Below, one piece after another: positions 19,359 through 48,320 of a stretch of DNA of 64,000 nucleotides. The DNA is from Candidatus Sulfomarinibacteraceae bacterium (GTDB lineage: Bacteria; Acidobacteriota; Thermoanaerobaculia; Thermoanaerobaculales; Sulfomarinibacteraceae). The notes under the pieces are model-generated. The model did not search any database, was not told where the DNA came from, and worked only from the letters and a program-made list of their open reading frames with translations. Numbering within the stretch: position 1 is the first letter of the stretch; each line of letters opens with the position of its first letter. Location of the stretch: positions 960,001 through 1,024,000 of the forward strand of contig CAWCLO010000001.1 of the NCBI GenBank assembly GCA_963796455.1. Direction: 5' to 3'. The translations under genes and the position numbers were made by a program.

Positions 19359-19808
19359 GATCACTCTTGTCCCAGACAGAGTCTCGGATAGCGTGCAGGG
19401 ACAGCGCCAGAGAACGGTCGACAGCGTCAGCGAACTGGAGTCAGGGGCAGTGTTCAGCTATCAGCACTCAATTCGTCGGGTTCAAGAGCCGCAAGATAAT
19501 GGCCCGAACCTGATCGAAGGTGTTCATCGCCTCACGGGCGCCCGCCCACCGGCCACCCCGTTCCGTTGCACAACCCGGAGGTGGTGGCCACGCCGCCACC
19601 TGGACTCCTGAACGCTGCCGCCGATCGCTGCAAACTGATCGCTGACCGTTGTTCCCTGTCGCTGATCACTGTCGCTGCCGCTGCAATTCGGACGCGGACG
19701 AGGACGCGGGCACGGGGCAACGGCGAACCGAATATGCCCAAAACCAACCCGTAAACCCCGTGTTGTCAATCGGGCAACTTCAGATCACGATCTGTTTTGG
19801 ACAGCACT
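19359..19808. mobile_element. Copy A: L/R-framed element with four-helix-bundle gene remnant (minus strand, 19468-19540) plus shared ~100-bp module
   Basis: L end GATCACTCTTGTCC..., R end CACTGTCGCTGCCGCTGCAATTCGG; remnant reads EAMNTFDQVRAIILRLLNPTN*; colinear with the reverse complement of 39783-40293. Confidence 0.75.
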
Positions 19809-19972
19809 GATACAGGAAGATAGTCGATTCACCTGACGGCTTGCCACTGGTCGAGTGCGATGAATCCTGAATCCTGAGTCCTGTGGCCTGAATCCCGTTA
19901 CCGGGCGGGTTGGAAATAACTGAGAACTCATATACATTCCACTGTTCTGAGTAGATTGAACGGAGTGTGCTC

Positions 19973-22597
19973 ATGACAACCATGTCGCCGGAAGAGATCC
20001 GCGCGAAGCTCGATGACATATTGCCGGGGGTCCAGAAACCGACCCGCTATCTCGGCATCGAACGAAATCTGGTCCGCAAACCCTGGCAGTCGGTCAAGGT
20101 GCGAGTCGCCCTTGCCTTTCCAGATGCCTACGAGATCGGCATGTCCCATCAGGGGACTCGGGTGCTGTACCACCTCGTCAATCGACGTGACGACGCACTG
20201 GCCGAGCGGACCTTCGCCCCGATGCCGGACATGGCGGAAGCCCTGCGCAGCAACGATGTGCCCCTCTTCTCACTGGAAACCTATCAACCAGTTGGCGCAT
20301 TCGATATGGTCGGGATCTCGCTTCAGTCAGAGCTCAACTACATCAACATCCCGTACATGCTCGATCTTGCGCGGATCACGAGAAGGGCCTCGGACCGGGG
20401 TCACAATGAGCCCTTCGTCATCGGCGGTGGGCCCTGTACAGCCAACCCGGAACCAGTTGCCGACTTTTTCGATGCCATCCTGATCGGCGATGGAGAAGCG
20501 GCCCTCGACGACATCCTCGACACCATCGGCGACGGCCGCGCCGCCGGTTCCTCCAGGCTCGAGATCCTGAAGCGATTGGCCGCCATCCGTGGGGTCTATG
20601 TCCCAACCTTCTACAAATGGACGCCGGCAGAGGGCGACAAGCCTGCAACCTGGCAGACCCAGGACGCGCAAGCAGTTTTTCCGGTCGAGCGCGTCTGGGT
20701 GAAAGAACTCGATCCTGACAGCCAACCCGAATCGGTGATCGTTCCGTTTGCCGACGTGATCCAGGATCGTATCGGGATGGAAATCATGCGGGGCTGCACC
20801 CAGGGGTGCCGGTTCTGCCAGGCGGGTTACTGGTATCGACCGGTTCGCGAACACGACCCCGAAATGGTGCTCGAACGAATCCAGAAACAGGTTGCTGACA
20901 CCGGCTTCGAACAGGTTGGGCTACTCAGTCTCTCGACCGCCGACTACTCGCAGGTGGAACCGCTGGTATATCGCCTGTCGGAAGAACTGCAGGATCGCCG
21001 GGTCTCCGTGAGCCTGCCATCGCTCCGCGCCGATGCGTTCTCCGTCGGCCTTGCCGAGGCCGTTTCCCGGGTCCGCAAATCCGGTTTCACTTTCGCACCC
21101 GAAACCGGGTCCGATCGACTGCGGCGGGTCATCAACAAGACCTTCACCAACGCCGACATGGTGCAGGCTGCCGAGGCGGCGTTCTCGAAGGGCTGGAACC
21201 TCATCAAGGTCTACGCGATGATCGGGCTGCCCACCGAAACCGATGACGACCTCGAAGAGCTTGCCCGTTTGACCGAAGACATCCTCGAGGCCGCGCGTCG
21301 GTCCGGCAGAGGACGCAAGGTGCAGGTCAAGGTGTCGGTTGGCTGTTTCATCCCCAAGTCGTGGACGCCTTTTCAGTGGCAACCTTTTACCGGTGTTGGA
21401 GAACTCGAGCGCCGGATCCATCTCCTCAAGAACCGCTTCAAGAGGATTCGCGGCGCTCGCCTGACGTGGTCGGAACCGAGAGAAGCGGCTCTCGAGTCGC
21501 TGCTCTCGCGCGGCGGCCGAAATCTGTCCGAGACCATCGAACGAGCGCACGACCTCGGTGCCGTGTTCGACGGTTGGAATGATCTCCTCGACCTCGACGC
21601 CTGGCGCACAGCAATTGATGAGACCGGGGTCGATATGGAAACCGAACTGGGCGAGAGACAGCTCGGCGACACACTGCCCTGGGACGTCATCGACGCCGGC
21701 GTGCGCAAGGGTTATCTCAAGGCCGAATGGCGCCGCGCGCTCAAAGAGGACCAGACCGAAGACTGCAAGTGGGGCCACTGCTATCGCTGTGGGATTCCGG
21801 GCGACGGCGAAGACACCCAGCTCGCCCCGGCATCGCTGCCGGTGATTGGCGACGTTCTTCCCGAGGAGGACCAACCAAAGGCGGCAGCTTACCGCCTGCG
21901 GCCCGAGCCCCGCATCCCGCCACCGGACAAAAGCCGCGCCCAACCGCCGGTCTTTCGCCGCTTTCGCTTCACCTTCACCAAGACCGGCGACGCGAGATGG
22001 TTGTCTCACCGACAGATCATGGATGCCCTCGAACGGATTCTCCGCGCGGCCGAGATCCCGGTCCGATATACCGAAGGATTCAACCCCCATATCCGCCTAT
22101 CCATGGGCCCGGCCCTTTCGGTTGGTCACGAGGGTGAAGCAGAGATCTTCGACGTGGACTGCACCGCCCCGGTGCGCCCTCAGCACATCGAGCAGGCCAA
22201 CCGGCTCCTGCCTGACGGCGTCAAAATCACTGCTGTCCAGGCCTTGTTGCCCGGTGCCCCGTCACTCGGGAAGCTGATCGCAGCGGCCCGGTATCGGATA
22301 TCGGCGCCGCGCATCGACGATCGAAGCTGGCCAGCCTCGAGTGAAGGCCTTGCCGATGATCTGGGTTCAGGGGTCGGGAGCTGGGCCCTGCTCGAGGACG
22401 GCAGTCTTCGAGTCGAACTCAATGCCCGGCAAGAGGACGGCCCGACGGTTTCGGTCAAAAAGCTCCTTCTCGGTCTCGGACTCGACGAGGATGAATCCAT
22501 CCGGACAACGGTTGCCCGTGAAGGGCTGGTGCTCAGACCGCGAACCAAAAAAACAAAGCCTGCCGCAACGGAGACGACCGGGACGGTTCACCCGTGA
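19973..22597 (+). CDS. TIGR03960-type B12-binding radical SAM protein fused to a TIGR03936/DUF2344-type domain
   Basis: FPDAYEIGMS N-terminus, RGCTQGCRFC cluster motif, FAPETG; C-terminal FTKTGDARWLSH...YTEGFNPH domain. Confidence 0.88.
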   Translation: MTTMSPEEIRAKLDDILPGVQKPTRYLGIERNLVRKPWQSVKVRVALAFPDAYEIGMSHQGTRVLYHLVNRRDDALAERTFAPMPDMAEALRSNDVPLFSLETYQPVGAFDMVGISLQSELNYINIPYMLDLARITRRASDRGHNEPFVIGGGPCTANPEPVADFFDAILIGDGEAALDDILDTIGDGRAAGSSRLEILKRLAAIRGVYVPTFYKWTPAEGDKPATWQTQDAQAVFPVERVWVKELDPDSQPESVIVPFADVIQDRIGMEIMRGCTQGCRFCQAGYWYRPVREHDPEMVLERIQKQVADTGFEQVGLLSLSTADYSQVEPLVYRLSEELQDRRVSVSLPSLRADAFSVGLAEAVSRVRKSGFTFAPETGSDRLRRVINKTFTNADMVQAAEAAFSKGWNLIKVYAMIGLPTETDDDLEELARLTEDILEAARRSGRGRKVQVKVSVGCFIPKSWTPFQWQPFTGVGELERRIHLLKNRFKRIRGARLTWSEPREAALESLLSRGGRNLSETIERAHDLGAVFDGWNDLLDLDAWRTAIDETGVDMETELGERQLGDTLPWDVIDAGVRKGYLKAEWRRALKEDQTEDCKWGHCYRCGIPGDGEDTQLAPASLPVIGDVLPEEDQPKAAAYRLRPEPRIPPPDKSRAQPPVFRRFRFTFTKTGDARWLSHRQIMDALERILRAAEIPVRYTEGFNPHIRLSMGPALSVGHEGEAEIFDVDCTAPVRPQHIEQANRLLPDGVKITAVQALLPGAPSLGKLIAAARYRISAPRIDDRSWPASSEGLADDLGSGVGSWALLEDGSLRVELNARQEDGPTVSVKKLLLGLGLDEDESIRTTVAREGLVLRPRTKKTKPAATETTGTVHP

Positions 22598-22974
22598 GGG
22601 CACGATGGGTCATTCACTCGCGTTCGAATTTCAACGCGCACCACGCCCTGACCATTTACCTGGGCCAAGCGGAAGCCTCCCACAGTCACGAGTGGCAGGT
22701 CGAGGTACAGGTCGGCACGGATCGCCTCAACGACGAGGGATATGCGCTCGATTTCCACGCGGTACATCGGATTCTCAAAGATGCGGTGGCTCCCCTCGAG
22801 GACATGGACCTCAACCAACACCCTGAGATCGGCAAGCCGACACCCTCGGCCGAGCGGGTGGCCGAGGTGCTCGCCGGCCACCTGGCGCCGAAGTTCGAAG
22901 AGATCGGGGGCCGTCTCATTTCAGTGAGTGTGTGGGAGGGACCGGAGAACCGGGTTGATCTCAACCTCGGTTGA
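22594..22974 (+). CDS. 6-pyruvoyl-tetrahydropterin synthase/QueD-family protein with Glu-type active-site motif
   Basis: FNAHHAL...EASHSH...LDF...PSAE...VSVWE; GTGA overlap with the upstream gene. Confidence 0.8.
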   Translation: MRARWVIHSRSNFNAHHALTIYLGQAEASHSHEWQVEVQVGTDRLNDEGYALDFHAVHRILKDAVAPLEDMDLNQHPEIGKPTPSAERVAEVLAGHLAPKFEEIGGRLISVSVWEGPENRVDLNLG

Positions 22975-22992
22975 CACGGGACGCAACGGGGT

Positions 22993-23073
22993 TGGGCTAT
23001 GGGGCTATGCGCTATGGGGCTATGGGGCTATGCGCTACTTAGGGGCTATGGGGCTATGGGGCTATGGGGCTAT
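22993..23073. repeat. (GGGGCTAT)n left arm of four-helix-bundle cassette
   Basis: Imperfect tandem 8-mer array read directly from the sequence. Confidence 0.95.
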
Positions 23074-23100
23074 TGAGCAATCGGTGTTCGTTGGCAGGAG

Positions 23101-23457
23101 TCAATAGGACCTGCGCTTCTGAATGAATGAGGCAAGAGCGGCCGCCGTTCTGCCTTGCGATTCGCGCAGCTTTTCTGATTTCCCATCGGCCAAATATCCC
23201 AGCCTGTGAGAAAGGTCGATCAGGTACCCCAATTCCCGGACCGATCCAAATGCGATATCGAGAAAACGGTCGAATTCGGTTTCAGTCCTTCGGCCACAAC
23301 CTTCTACAATATTTGCGGCGACAGAGACGGAGCACCGTCTCATCTGGCTGACCAATCCATAGAGTTCGTCCTGTGGATAACTTTTTGTCGCTTGGTAAAC
23401 GAGAATCACCAGATCATCTGCCAACCGATAAACATCAAGCTTTCGATGGTCTCTCAA
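23101..23457 (-). CDS. Four helix bundle protein (TIGR02436 / 23S rRNA-IVP / bAvd-like)
   Basis: HRKLDVY...YPQDELYGLVSQMRRCSVSVAANIVEGCGR...FLDIAFGSVREL...LGYL is the family signature; visibly more AT-rich than its neighbours. Confidence 0.92.
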   Translation of the reverse strand: MRDHRKLDVYRLADDLVILVYQATKSYPQDELYGLVSQMRRCSVSVAANIVEGCGRRTETEFDRFLDIAFGSVRELGYLIDLSHRLGYLADGKSEKLRESQGRTAAALASFIQKRRSY

Positions 23458-23497
23458 AGCGTTCTCACTTTAGATCGGAGGCTCCAAACCCGTGATC

Positions 23498-23533
23498 GCC
23501 ATAGCCTTATAGCCCCACAGCCTCATAGCCTCA
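23498..23533. repeat. Degenerate (ATAGCCYY)n right arm, inverted relative to 22993-23073
   Basis: catagccttatagccccacagcctcatagcctca; ATAGCCCC is the reverse complement of GGGGCTAT. Confidence 0.85.
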
Positions 23534-25546
23534 TTGCCCATTCACCGCCTGCGCTACCAACTCGATGACATCGTAGGTCGTCGCGTCCTCATGCCCCATT
23601 TCGTTCTGGGCATCGGAGAGCATCGAGTAGCAGTAGGGGCATGCGACTGCCGTGTCCTTCGTTCCGGTGGCCTCGAGCTGGGCGAACCGGGTCTGGTTGA
23701 TGCGCTCTCCGATGCTTTCCTCGAGCCACATCCGACCGCCGCCGGCGCCGCAGCACATCGAGGTTTCACGACTGAGTTCGGCCTCCCGTACATTGACGCC
23801 CGGAATCGCGTTGAGGAGGAATCGCGGCGCGTCGTATTCGCCGTTGGTGCGGCCGAGATAACAGGGATCGTGATAAGCCACGTCGACATCGACCGTCGCG
23901 GTGAGCTTCACCTTGCCCGACCGTACGAGATCGGCGACGAGTTGGGTGCCGTGGACGACTTCGTACTCTCCGCCGAACTCGGGATACTCGTGCGCCAAGG
24001 TATTGAAGGCGTGCGGGCAATTGGTGACGATTTTCTTGACGCCATAGCCGTTCATGGTCTCGATGTTTTGCTGCGCCAGCATCTGGAAGAGGTATTCGTT
24101 GCCGAGCCGGCGCGCCGCGTCGCCGGTCGAGACCTCCTCGGGACCGAGGATGGCGATCTTGACACCGGCGGTCTGGAGAATCTTGACCATCGCCTGCGAG
24201 ACCTTTTTGCCGTGATCGTCGTAGCTTCCGGGCGACCCGACAAAAAACAGATATTCGAAATCGCCCGCGGCCTCCGCAGCAAGCGGGACACCGAGATCTG
24301 AGGCCCAGTTGCCGCGTTCTTCCGCCGGCAGCTGCCACGGGTTGCCGTTGACCTCGTAGCCGCGGAAGGCAGGTTGGGCTTCGTCGGGGAACTCCGCTTT
24401 CTCGAGCACCAGGTTCCGCCGCAACTCCACCAGCTTGTCGACGTAGCTGATATCGAGGGGACACGCCCGTTCGCACCAGCGGCAGGTGGTGCAAGCCCAG
24501 ATGACCTCGGGATCAACGACCACCGGCACCAGTTGATGTTCGGATCGGTGATCCGCTTCTCCGGGCGAACCGAGAATGTCCTGCTGCTCGGCATAGAGTT
24601 GATCTCGCACGCTCTTCAGAAAAAGCACCGGCTGCAGCGGTTTGTGGGTGAGGGTGGTCGGACAATACTCCCGGCAGCGTCCGCACTCGGTACAGGTGTA
24701 CATATCGAGCATCTGCTTCCAGGTGAAGTCGGTCACCGTCGAGATACCGAACGTGGTGTTGTCGTCGATGTTCTCGAGATCCATGCTCGGCAATTTGCCG
24801 GGAGCATCGAGATTGGCGAAAAAGACGTTGAATATCGAGGTGTAGACGTGGAAGTGCTTGGAGTACGGCAGTTCGTTGGCAAAGGCGAACAGGGTGATGA
24901 GGTGGACCCACCAGCTGAAGCCGTAGATGAATTGGAGCTTCGCCGCGCTGAGACCTGAAAAGGCGCCCGCTACGAGACTCGAGATCGGAAGATAGGAGCC
25001 CTCGAGCTCACCGGCCGCAATGCGCGCGCCCTCCGATGTCAGGTCGGTGATCATGAGGATGGCGATAAAACCAATCACCAACCAGGCGCCCCAGCTCTGA
25101 ATCACGCGCTCCTTCTTCTGGATGCCCCGTCGCCAGATGGCGAAAGCGAGACCGACCAATACCAGCAACTCGAATATGTCCTTGGAGAACAAATAGGCGT
25201 GGCCCACCGGCGAATCGAGGAGCGGCAGTTCCCAACCCGCAAAAAGGCCCTCGAGGACCATGGTCACCGTGCGCACGCTGACCACCAGGAAACCGTAGAA
25301 GATCAGCAGGTGATAGAAACCGGCCAGCTTGTCGTCAAACATCTTCCTCTGACCGAAGGCGTAGACCATCATGTGTTTGAATCGCTCACCTATACGGTCG
25401 AAACGATTGTCCGCCCGGCCGCTCCTGAGAAGCTGAATCCGCCGGCTCAGCGAAAAGATGACTGCGCCGACACCGAAAATCGTGAGAATCCAGAACCAAA
25501 CAACCCCGGAAATCCCCAGAAACGACCCAGCGGTGGCGTGATGCAT
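23531..25546 (-). CDS. Membrane-anchored Fe-S oxidoreductase with CCG domains (FadF/HdrD-like)
   Basis: N-terminal TM helices; CTECGRCREYCP and CTTCRWCERACP; YHDPC, CCGAGGG and ACPYC motifs. Confidence 0.88.
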   Translation of the reverse strand: MHHATAGSFLGISGVVWFWILTIFGVGAVIFSLSRRIQLLRSGRADNRFDRIGERFKHMMVYAFGQRKMFDDKLAGFYHLLIFYGFLVVSVRTVTMVLEGLFAGWELPLLDSPVGHAYLFSKDIFELLVLVGLAFAIWRRGIQKKERVIQSWGAWLVIGFIAILMITDLTSEGARIAAGELEGSYLPISSLVAGAFSGLSAAKLQFIYGFSWWVHLITLFAFANELPYSKHFHVYTSIFNVFFANLDAPGKLPSMDLENIDDNTTFGISTVTDFTWKQMLDMYTCTECGRCREYCPTTLTHKPLQPVLFLKSVRDQLYAEQQDILGSPGEADHRSEHQLVPVVVDPEVIWACTTCRWCERACPLDISYVDKLVELRRNLVLEKAEFPDEAQPAFRGYEVNGNPWQLPAEERGNWASDLGVPLAAEAAGDFEYLFFVGSPGSYDDHGKKVSQAMVKILQTAGVKIAILGPEEVSTGDAARRLGNEYLFQMLAQQNIETMNGYGVKKIVTNCPHAFNTLAHEYPEFGGEYEVVHGTQLVADLVRSGKVKLTATVDVDVAYHDPCYLGRTNGEYDAPRFLLNAIPGVNVREAELSRETSMCCGAGGGRMWLEESIGERINQTRFAQLEATGTKDTAVACPYCYSMLSDAQNEMGHEDATTYDVIELVAQAVNGQ

Positions 25547-28902: not shown

Positions 28903-29575
28903 AGAAACCGCAGATCACGCAGATGACATGAGGCGGTGCCGACCGTGGCTACACCGCCTCATGTCATCCTGAGCGAGGGAGTTTCGCGACCGAGTCGAAG
29001 GATCTACGCAGATAAGGAATCGCTACCGTCATCGTGTCGCTATCGCTATCGAAAAGCGAAAACTCCGAGGTCTATTCAATGGCGGTCCCGATCCCGATCC
29101 CGAATTGCAGCGGCAGCGACAGTGTTCAGCGTCAGCGACAGGCAACAGCGAACAGGGACAGCGACAGAGAACAGCGATCAGTGTTCAGCGGCAGCGGCAG
29201 CGATCAGGTCCGTGCCATGACCTGGCGGCTGTTGAACCCAAAAATTAACGTACCGTTCCCTGACGCTGACGCTGCTCGCCGACGCTGGTTCCTGTCGCTG
29301 TCGCCGACTCCTGTTCGCTGACGCTGTACACTGATCGCTGTTCCCTGTCTCTGACGCTGATCGCTGTCTAAGACCCTGTCTTGGACAAGAGTGATCGAGT
29401 ATCGAGTATCGAGTATCGAGCGAATGGTCTCCCTTTCCCCATGCTCCTCTGCCGATGGTTGACGCGCCAAAAATCCGAAATCCGAAATCCGAAATTGATC
29501 TCCCCTTCCCCCTTTCTCCCCTTCCCCCTTTCTCCCTTTCTCCCTTTCTCCCTTTCTCCTCTTCTACCCGGCACC
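28903..29575. mobile_element. Copy B: composite element (motif+hairpin+half palindrome, R/L frame 29099-29396, four-helix remnant 29201-29248, TATCGAG, AATCCGA and CTCCCTTT arrays)
   Basis: 28903-29182 closely matches the reverse complement of 47922-48230; remnant reads DQVRAMTWRLLNPK. Confidence 0.78.
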
Positions 29576-39782: not shown

Positions 39783-40410
39783 AACTGTCCAAAACAAATC
39801 AACATGTGAAGTTTCCCAACTGACAACACGTGGTTTACGAGTTGGTTTTTGGCATTTCCGGTTCGCGGTTGCCCCGCGCCCGCGTCCGTTTCCGGAATGG
39901 AGCGGCAGCGACAGGGACAGGAACCGGCGAACAGGGACAGCGATCAGTGATCAGGTGCAGCGATCAGGTGCAGCGACGGCGTGGCCACCACCGGGTCGTT
40001 CAACAGAAGGGGTAGCCGGTGGGCGGCCGAGTTGGTAGAGACCGGTCGAACCACTGGAGAATCGCCTACGCCTCGGCCAAAGGGGTCGACAGCCACTTGC
40101 AGCTCCTCGCCCACGCCGGGGCGATCAGCCCGAACGGAGCCAGTGAAGCGATGAACGCCTTCGATCAGGTCCGTGCGATGACCTGGCGCCTCTTGAACCC
40201 GAAAATGTGAGCGCTGGTCGCTGCCGCTGTCTGCTGTTCCCCTGTCGCTGTCCCTGAATCTTGTCCGAGACACTATCTTGGACAACAGTGATCCAGTATC
40301 GAGCATCAAGTATCGAGTATCGAGCGAAAGCTCACCCTTTCTCCCTTTCCCCCTCCCTTTCCCCCTTTCCCCCTTTCTCACATTCGGGTACGGGATCGGG
40401 ATCGGAACGG
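39783..40410. mobile_element. Copy C: shared module, R/L frame (39892-40293), longest four-helix remnant, TATCGAG and CCCTTT arrays
   Basis: Colinear with the reverse complement of copy A. Confidence 0.78.
40024..40210 (+). pseudogene. C-terminal half of a four helix bundle gene
   Basis: GRVGRDRSNHWRIAYASAKGVDSHLQLLAHAGAI...AMNAFDQVRAMTWRLLNPKM* fits the EG.GR...IA.GS..E half of the family; the N-terminal half is absent. Confidence 0.7.
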
Positions 40411-41689: not shown

Positions 41690-42196
41690 GAATTCGGAGT
41701 TCGGGCGGAGTTCGGAGTTCGGAGTTCGGAGTTCGGAGTTCGGAGTTCGGAGTCACTCTAGTCCAAGACAACGTCTCGGACAGCGTCCAGGGGCAGGGAA
41801 GAGCAAACAGCGACGGCGAACAGCCGCCCATGACGCGATGAAGGCGTTCGACCAGGTCCGTGCCATGACTTGGCGGCTGTTGAATCCGAAGGAGTGAGTG
41901 CTGTCTGCTGTCGCTGACCGCTGTCCCTGTTCGCTGCTGCCTGTCGCTGACGCTGGACACTGTCGCTGCCGCTGCAATTCGGGATTGGGATCGGGTACGG
42001 GCCAATCGCGAACAGGATATGTCAACAACCAACCAGTCAACCTCGGGTTGTCACATGGGCAACTTCACGTGGCGAACAGGATATGACAGCAGTGGTTCGG
42101 AGTTCTGAGTTCGAAATGCCGTCGACCCACCCCGGGGACCATGGCGTTCCGATCGATCGCAGTTTGCAATCCCGAATTCCGAATTCCGAACTTTGA
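41690..42196. mobile_element. Copy D: L/R-framed element (41753-41983) plus shared module, inserted in a (GGAGTTC)n arm; remnant 41819-41897 flipped relative to the frame
   Basis: Remnant reads HDAMKAFDQVRAMTWRLLNPKE*; the GGAGTTC array resumes at about 42095; inverted GAATTCC arm at 42170-42195. Confidence 0.78.
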
Positions 42197-47589: not shown

Positions 47590-48320
47590 GCAGAGGAGAA
47601 AGGGTGAAAGGGTGAAAGGGAGAACCGTACCGGAAACTCTGTTCGAGACAAGGAGAGAGTATTCGCAATCCCTAATCACTCTTGTCCAATACAGGGTTGC
47701 GGACCGCGATCAGGGACGGCGACAGCGATCAGCGTCAGCGACAGCGTTCAGTGGTCAGCGGCAGCGACCAGCCACCGGGGCAGCGTCAGCGTCGGCGAAC
47801 AGCCCTTACTGGTCGGGTTCAAGAGCCGCCAGGTCATCGCTCGGACCTGATCGAAGGCGTTCATCGCGTCGCGGGCGGCTGTCGCACTGATCGCCCCGGG
47901 GGTGGCCTCGCCGTCACTGCACCTGATCGCTGTTCTCTGTCGCTGTCCCTGTTCGCTGTTGCCTGTCGCTGGCGCTGGCGCTGAACACTGTCGCTGCCGC
48001 TGCAATTCGGGATCAAGATCGGGATCGGGACCGCCATTGAATGGACCTCGGAGTTTTCGCTTTTCGATAGCGATAGCGATAGCGATAGCGATGACGGTAA
48101 GGATGACGGTAGGGATTCCTTATCTGCGTAGATCCTTCGACTCGGTCGCGAAGCTCCCTCGCTCAGGATGACATCAGGCGGTGTAGCCTCGGCCAGCACC
48201 GCCTCATGTCATCTGCGTGATCTGCGGTTTGTGATGGGATCCGATGCGATGGAATTCCCAATTCCCAATTCCCAATTCCTAATTCCTAATTCCTAATTCC
48301 TACCGGCTCCCCTGCTCCCA
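47590..48320. mobile_element. Copy E: composite element with L/R frame (47675-48011), four-helix remnant on minus strand (47806-47900), half palindrome, hairpin and AATTCCY array
   Basis: Remnant reads PGAISATAARDAMNAFDQVRAMTWRLLNP; the right part is the reverse complement of copy B's left part. Confidence 0.78.

Follow-up and report, generated by a model that had tools for sequence, protein, structure and literature searches.

A four-helix-bundle gene lies between two converging host genes of the source genome, enclosed by inverted arrays of a tandem octamer. Inverted arms of this kind recur around its homologues, the site is patchily occupied among relatives, and a sister family of the gene is carried in the manner of a transposon. 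Comparisons of sequences and a predicted structure lead us to give about an even chance to the following interpretation: the locus is a hairpin-forming passenger cassette, resembling the ORF-bearing intervening sequences of rRNA but residing outside rRNA, that would hitch-hike or recombine into place and whose Avd-fold protein probably binds the repeat stem. The class is real, general and apparently undescribed in print; no literature linking the PF05635 family to inverted tandem arrays was found, in searches that covered subscription journals poorly.

The locus joins two puzzles, the function of PF05635 and that of intergenic arrays with units of 7-8 bases. We know of no function for PF05635 proteins outside the DGR homologue Avd, although they are widespread and structures have been solved, and such arrays are, to our knowledge, common and unexplained.

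The cassette, its arms and its protein

The window is the whole 64-kb stretch analysed (G000:C1:960001-1024000, G000 being the source genome). Its features at this locus are:

22594-22974, plus strand: PTPS/QueD-like host gene (PF01242, profile match), the left boundary, outside the cassette
22993-23073, plus strand: arm downstream of the cassette gene, about ten tandem GGGGCTAT/GCGCTAT octamer units
23101-23457, minus strand: four-helix-bundle cassette gene (PF05635/TIGR02436, Xcc0516/Avd fold)
23500-23540, minus strand: arm upstream of the cassette gene, about five units, reading (A/G)GGCTATG on the minus strand
23531-25546, minus strand: host gene for a CCG-domain Fe-S oxidoreductase (profile match)

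The cassette ORF starts with TTG and encodes 118 amino acids. Its GC content is 50.1%, compared with 60-62% in the three adjoining genes and 60.4% in the whole genome, which agrees with the earlier note's description of an AT-richer gene of this length amid convergent host genes and inverted flanks. The gene is present in a single copy in G000. Its product matches only the PF05635 family in profile searches (PF05635, E 3e-30, 104.9 bits against a curated cut-off of 33.8; TIGR02436, E 3e-29, 101.3 bits against a cut-off of 24); it is not a Y1 tyrosine transposase like that of RAYTs, and no recognisable recombinase is encoded by the cassette. The named records nearest to the protein carry the labels Ca. 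Sulfomarinibacteraceae and Thermoanaerobaculia. A model predicted from an alignment of 41 rows has four helices (pLDDT 96) and a TM score of 0.93 to Xcc0516 (2GSC). The predicted fold is also that of the DGR protein Avd (TM 0.79 to 4DWL), from which the cassette protein differs in sequence (10% amino-acid identity) and in its setting, reverse transcriptase not having been found in G000 and no template or variable repeat having been noticed beside the gene. The protein is just mildly basic (19 K+R, 16 D+E; pI 9.0). PF05635 has been likened to Avd in published descriptions (PMC10053308, 10.1101/2023.10.23.563531), and the latter source describes Avd as a pentameric barrel whose five protomers touch an RNA stem-loop.

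The downstream array (22994-23073; period 8, 9.9 copies, consensus GGGCTATG) begins 19 nt past the queD-like stop. The upstream array (23500-23538; 4.9 copies, consensus CATAGCCT) extends to about 23540 and overlaps the stop codon (TGA) of the Fe-S gene. The second arm had been taken for the reverse complement of the first; it is inverted, but degenerate, being mostly CATAGCCT and not CATAGCCC. The best inverted match between the arms is 31 nt at 87%. Of 3000 pairs drawn at random with matching geometry from the genome, itself rich in repeats, 4 reached the score of the two arms (22). The minus-strand RNA over the cassette is predicted to fold with z = -5.7 (0 of 100 shuffles equally good), the arms forming a 35-bp duplex of -61 kcal/mol, in line with the suggestion that they can form a stem enclosing the gene. 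Rfam gave no match at E≤1 across 22500-24000.

The end of the Fe-S gene is 73 nt from the cassette gene and both are on the minus strand; the Fe-S gene is the probable origin of any read-through into the cassette gene. A sigma-70 scan found 0 promoters, and two terminator-like matches within the cassette gene are on the opposite strand and near shuffle level. The cassette lacks flanking terminal repeats and a target duplication; its ends show just a 5-bp direct repeat, and no terminal sequence is common to the five known alleles. Movement of the cassette itself is therefore inferred and not seen.

As proposed here, the Fe-S transcript would continue into the cassette gene, and the arms would base-pair to form a stem with the gene in its loop, as in ORF-bearing rRNA intervening sequences. 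RNase III, whose gene is present in G000, would cut the stem, and the Avd-fold protein would bind its own repeat stem in cis, helping its copy to persist and spread. Because the cassette has no recognisable recombinase, movement would be by borrowing: non-autonomous transposons could carry it, as they do the sister family, or it could recombine into a site already occupied, the likely route here.

ORF-bearing intervening sequences of 23S rRNA encoding S23p are described from helix 45 of Coxiella and from Leptospira (PMC4990558). As far as that account goes, the cassette has the same protein family, complementary borders predicted to form a stem around the ORF, a patchy distribution and a host with RNase III; unlike those elements, it sits between two protein-coding genes and not within an rRNA gene, has a stem of tandem octamers, and has gene-less copies dispersed through the genome. 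The same source indicates that Coxiella S23p is apparently not produced in vivo. The cassette thus resembles the ORF-bearing intervening sequences in design and RAYT/REPIN systems in its gene-less doublets, and is a member of neither. It suggests a possible route for the origin and spread of ORF-bearing rRNA intervening sequences.

Inverted arms around homologues and gene-less copies

The expectation that homologues would also have inverted flanks was borne out. From a start set of 80 loci, 70 remained after removal of 4 duplicates, 1 locus without a match and 5 with short flanks. In 62 of the 70, a homologue's own flanks had an inverted score above the 95th percentile of scores from 4830 mismatched pairs, and in 40 above the 99th; the cassette locus, at 22.0, is slightly below the 99th. 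Host-like ORFs used as controls passed the 95th-percentile bar in 7 of 47 cases, and the PF05635 matches of G000 in 4 of 4 plus 62 of 66, the latter being members of a 66-copy family.

Addition of 80 metagenome loci gave 155, of which 131 were usable and 108 were left by dereplication at 90%. Periodic arm words agree in inverted orientation in 63 of these 108 loci and in direct orientation in 4. Loci with more similar proteins have more similar arms (Mantel rho 0.33, p 0.001; 87 of the 108 loci), a common arm word being found in 0.4% of pairs below 40% protein identity, 22% at 60-70% and 82% at 80-90%. Shared descent alone yields such a trend, which therefore shows co-inheritance and not recognition. 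The idea that each protein subfamily pairs with its own arm word can accordingly be retained as a lineage correlation, since the words follow the protein lineage, but not as a one-to-one code. When residues were compared with arm letters, positions 102 and 109 passed the permutation maximum for some features (56 of 108 loci anchored, 60 permutations, no phylogenetic correction).

Five homologues from Gemmatimonadota (L089, L095, L097, L088 and L092) have very strong inverted flanks (scores 55-91) and mostly little tandem periodicity; long plain stems replace the repeat arms in these loci. Elsewhere in the source genome, a 142-amino-acid PF13366 PD-(D/E)XK gene (L248:115-543; G000:C1:453894-454322), which we take to be of the GxxExxY type, lies within inverted CACAGAG/CTCTGTG arrays. 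This locus has the cassette's design with a different, possibly catalytic cargo. Because the same arm design here surrounds an unrelated gene, it counts against the passenger interpretation.

The octamer of the cassette is found at 42 sites in G000. Two-armed sites number 16, including the cassette, so that many copies at unrelated sites, as expected of a MITE, are seen for gene-less arm pairs (15 further sites) and not for the gene. All 16 have one polarity, the G-rich arm first, and 0 are reversed. A small hairpin is inserted at 12 of the 42 sites, its stem differing between copies. A hairpin of about 24 nt in the C-rich arm of gene-less elements occurs at G000:C3:113118-113230 and about 20 other sites; at one site it is repeated three times in tandem, and its stem variants preserve pairing. 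It presumably resembles the small dispersed repeats of cyanobacteria.

The gene-less spacers have no significant sequence in common with the cassette interior (best other match, E 0.14), and being unlike the gene they lend no support to the candidate explanation that these elements are plain deletion products retaining gene sequence. The gene-less GGGGCTAT hairpins are likely to be non-coding derivatives of the cassette or to share its means of spread.

Overlapping matches to a three-unit octamer pattern were counted across 25 genomes of the genus. The four carriers of the cassette have 46 (G000), 50 (G024), 27 (G014) and 8 (G008), the sister genome G016 has 15, and the other 20 have 0-2. G016 is 81% complete, its junction is at a contig end, and the cognate gene was not found in it. 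The cassette arms read GGCAAT in G024 (both arms) and GGCTAT in G000, G014 and the metagenome contig L104. Dispersed arrays share the letter of the local cassette in 45 of 46 matches in G000, 26 of 27 in G014 and 49 of 50 in G024. In G008 they retain the letter of the sisters (8 of 8), and the cassette, which was likely swapped, has the other letter.

Two-armed, hairpin-capable sites of the octamer (16 of 42, one being the cassette) recall RAYT/REPIN systems, in which, by the published account consulted (PMC3116915), a gene is linked to inverted repeats and gene-less doublets of its repeat are dispersed through the genome; the cassette differs from these in that its gene encodes a non-catalytic-looking four-helix bundle and not a Y1 transposase, and its arms are tandem 8-mers and not REP palindromes. 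By analogy, the protein could be a specificity factor that spreads and homogenises its own repeats, with a catalytic partner in trans; the cassette would be the autonomous element and the gene-less hairpins dependent on it. The restriction of abundant octamers to the four carriers and G016, the agreement between dispersed and cassette letters in three of the four carriers, and the single polarity of the two-armed sites all favour this alternative, and action in cis agrees with the purifying selection seen in shared variants of the 66-copy family. It is nevertheless unlikely. Three further repeat families fit it loosely or not at all, the fold has no known catalytic motif, no RVT_1 match occurs in G000, no arrays lie beside the six Y1 matches there, and the kin are not independent, the carrier pattern amounting to about three lineages.

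The other repeat families bear on the passenger interpretation as well, since arrays without a cognate gene speak against it. GGCTTGR arrays occur in 19 of the 25 genomes and are most numerous in G000 (77 matches), itself without that subfamily. ACGGC-type matches number 43, 12 and 7 in G006, G007 and G015, in which profiles find no member at E≤1e-25. Two further families correspond loosely to the presence of the cognate gene.

A more general proposal, rather doubtful, is that an undescribed kind of bacterial mobile DNA has four-helix-bundle cassettes as its master genes: each protein lineage would recognise a 7-8-base word of its own, act in cis on its hairpin transcript and, with a borrowed enzyme, seed and homogenise the gene-less hairpins of the genome. 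Such a class, if real, would account both for this protein family, large yet orphan, and for the heptamer and octamer arrays long known to be in excess in bacteria. The locus provides natural test material in its own arm word, the GGCTAT and GGCAAT variants, the likely swapped allele and the moving sister family.

Heptameric intergenic repeats have been described from Xanthomonas and Nostoc, with 70 and 75 inverted pairs in two Xanthomonas genomes (PMC4692102). Like the cassette arms they are G-rich, short, tandem and intergenic and often form inverted pairs; in that source, as available to us, they are tied to no gene family or mobile element and the words "four helix" never occur, whereas the cassette arms enclose a gene and co-vary with it.

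The 66-copy sister family and how it moves

Among the 70 PF05635 matches in G000, 66 constitute one family, to which the "remnants" of the earlier note belong. The cassette gene is distinct from it, as had been stated (28% identity over 60 amino acids and other arm words). Intact copies number 53 of the 66; they are of the same length, all distinct and 83-99% identical. These copies are the full state of that family, and the cassette is not its filled form; the claim that the cassette is a full state applies instead to the gene-less GGGGCTAT elements, of which it is the filled form. Truncated members are found in the window at 19361-19810, 29151-29394, 40025-40291, 41753-41894 and 47676-47906, the first retaining the terminal repeat at either end, with a 7-bp duplication that is nearly perfect (TGCAGGA/TACAGGA). 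PF05635 copies range from 0 to 70 per genome across the 25 genomes (G006, 55; G004, 42).

The dN/dS of the family is 0.16 in 300 sampled pairs, with 0.15 for shared variants and 0.60 for singletons. This pattern would be expected if the protein aids multiplication of its own copy; gene conversion, repeated import or sequencing error in singletons could mimic it.

Both ends are recognisable in 31 of the 66 copies, and a 7-bp duplication without mismatch accompanies 9 of these 31 (permutation mean 0.8, maximum 5). In G008, a 72%-identical protein is carried in a core of 822-823 bp, both ends of which were measured at 8 of 10 near-identical sites. The ends of this core differ from those of the G000 family. 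Among 21 end pairs, drawn from three genomes and including two duplicate rows, 10 have 8-bp duplications centred on AACGTT (permutation mean 1.8). At the four G008 sites compared, the junction in relatives is either empty, the target units there numbering from one to about six, or occupied by other elements; in one case the element is gene-less with the same ends. The terminal repeats, target duplications and empty sites of a MITE are thus all found in the sister family. An ISL3 transposase element of G008 starts with GGTTCATC at both ends, as does the sister core (first 8 nt shared), and has no exact duplication itself. We take the ends of the G008 core to be ISL3-like from the usual end and duplication traits of ISL3 elements. 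Like ISL3-type MITEs, the sister family combines short inverted repeats at its termini with target duplications of 7 or 8 bp, and it has gene-less versions; the cassette differs in having no such ends or duplication, and the G000 family in having other ends. No ISL3 transposase match was found in G000, and no cognate transposase with the ends of the G000 family.

The inner arms of the sister family move as part of the mobile core, with every letter preserved, and the mobile unit ends at the short terminal repeats, outside the tandem arms. Its outer arrays are targets and its inner arms are cargo. The arms are therefore not established as transposon ends, and of the earlier proposal that they bound a mobile unit, what holds is that the gene and its inverted arms recur as a unit. 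Common arrays coincide with the duplicated target words, TSCWGSA in G000 and NAACGTTN in G008 (L184-L193). Array length at empty sites ranges between one and about six units, and such arrays may have been built by repeated insertion and excision.

These outer heptamer and octamer arrays, demonstrably targets, raise the alternative that the arrays are independent repeats or transposon targets and that the cassette gene landed in a pre-existing inverted pair, the arms lying outside the unit. G000 is rich in arrays (1264 of short period) and in inverted pairs (151 within 3 kb), arrays exist without cognate genes, and the empty junctions of relatives are filled by unrelated arrays. We consider this alternative distinctly unlikely, as the arm words track the protein across host sites and phyla and the inner arms of the sister family move within its core; if a gene came to rest in its own word every time, some recognition of that sequence would be needed in any case.

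G000 has six Y1 matches, with no short-period arrays within 1.2 kb of them, and also multi-copy IS91-type genes (three copies). A pair of Y1 transposase elements, 97% identical and each with inverted ends, lies 3 kb apart (L249:109-1107; G000:C4:1146349-1147449).

Occupancy and history of the queD/Fe-S junction

Empty sites, for which relatives were searched, are common. A queD-like gene is present in 23 of 41 genomes; the converging junction is assembled in 14 of these, 4 have another gene order, and 5 have no Fe-S gene in the locus. The cassette occupies 4 of the 14 assembled junctions (G000, G014, G008 and G024), and at the remaining 10 there are different repeats, an additional gene or a gap of 34-51 bp. 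The metagenome contig L104 is a fifth carrier. All five alleles are at the same site and co-directional with the Fe-S gene, and the four genus alleles form one clade (support 97/80, in a tree that includes four of the five alleles). The hosts of the carriers represent three lineages, G008 and G024 being nested among non-carriers. Several further host sites are occupied by a sister clade, 65-70% identical, whose arms are of the ACGGC type.

The cassette genes of G008 and G024 have 71% nucleotide identity (dS 1.66, dN 0.18), which is the distance between alleles of distant hosts, whereas their Fe-S genes are 95% identical (dS 0.18) and their queD genes 88% (dS 0.50, dN 0.04). The drop in identity, from about 83-97% to 57-79%, is confined to the stretch that separates the two host stops. 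The discordance is most simply, and on these alignments most probably, explained by replacement at a site already occupied; a very uneven rate is the alternative. In distant pairs the cassette gene is more conserved than queD (dN about 0.2 versus 0.25-0.34), with saturated dS. Two of the four alleles are broken as assembled, by an in-frame TAG in G014 and a start-region frameshift in G008, either of which may be an assembly error.

A fresh insertion is ruled out by the sharing of the cassette with three genus genomes and one contig, the saturated dS and the lack of a duplication. Stable vertical synteny, which would have told against a mobile cassette, describes the locus in part, given one clade at one site in four genus genomes and one metagenome contig; its strict form is ruled out by the 10 of 14 junctions without the gene and by the G008/G024 discordance, one allele looking swapped. 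Judged from these sequences, the cassette is an old resident of the junction that has been repeatedly lost and probably replaced at least once.

Excised forms were also searched, and no excision joint or circle was found in four contig sets. Reads of one DNA run match both host genes without differences and skip 23104-23572; at a depth of about 3, and with no contig spanning the stretch, the gap is no evidence of an empty allele. In a run labelled as a metatranscriptome, three stretches (22932-23024, 23045-23193 and 23173-23422) are covered by contigs carrying no more than one substitution apiece, one contig has 7 extra bases in an arm, and no joint skips the cassette. These contigs provide evidence of presence and of arm-length variation, and not of transcription.

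A domesticated role could also be considered, in which an RNA-binding protein acts on repeat-bearing transcripts and the arms are an autoregulatory site or a two-way terminator. A regulatory network has been proposed, in the part of the source consulted, for the TAACTGA repeats of Beggiatoaceae (PMC4679880). The constancy of site and orientation in all five alleles, their single clade, the low dN beside saturated dS, and the coverage of 22932-23422 by RNA-library contigs almost without differences are compatible with such a role, although the RNA-library signal may include DNA carry-over. Absence from 10 of 14 junctions, alleles broken as assembled in 2 of 4 and a family copy number of 0-70 make it highly doubtful. 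A DGR or retroelement context is ruled out by the 0 matches to RVT_1 reverse transcriptase (PF00078) in G000, which is 90.5% complete.

The junction between queD and the Fe-S gene (L022-L042) is a hotspot in its own right. Nearly every relative has its own stack of repeats or REP-like hairpins there, and two relatives have an extra gene.
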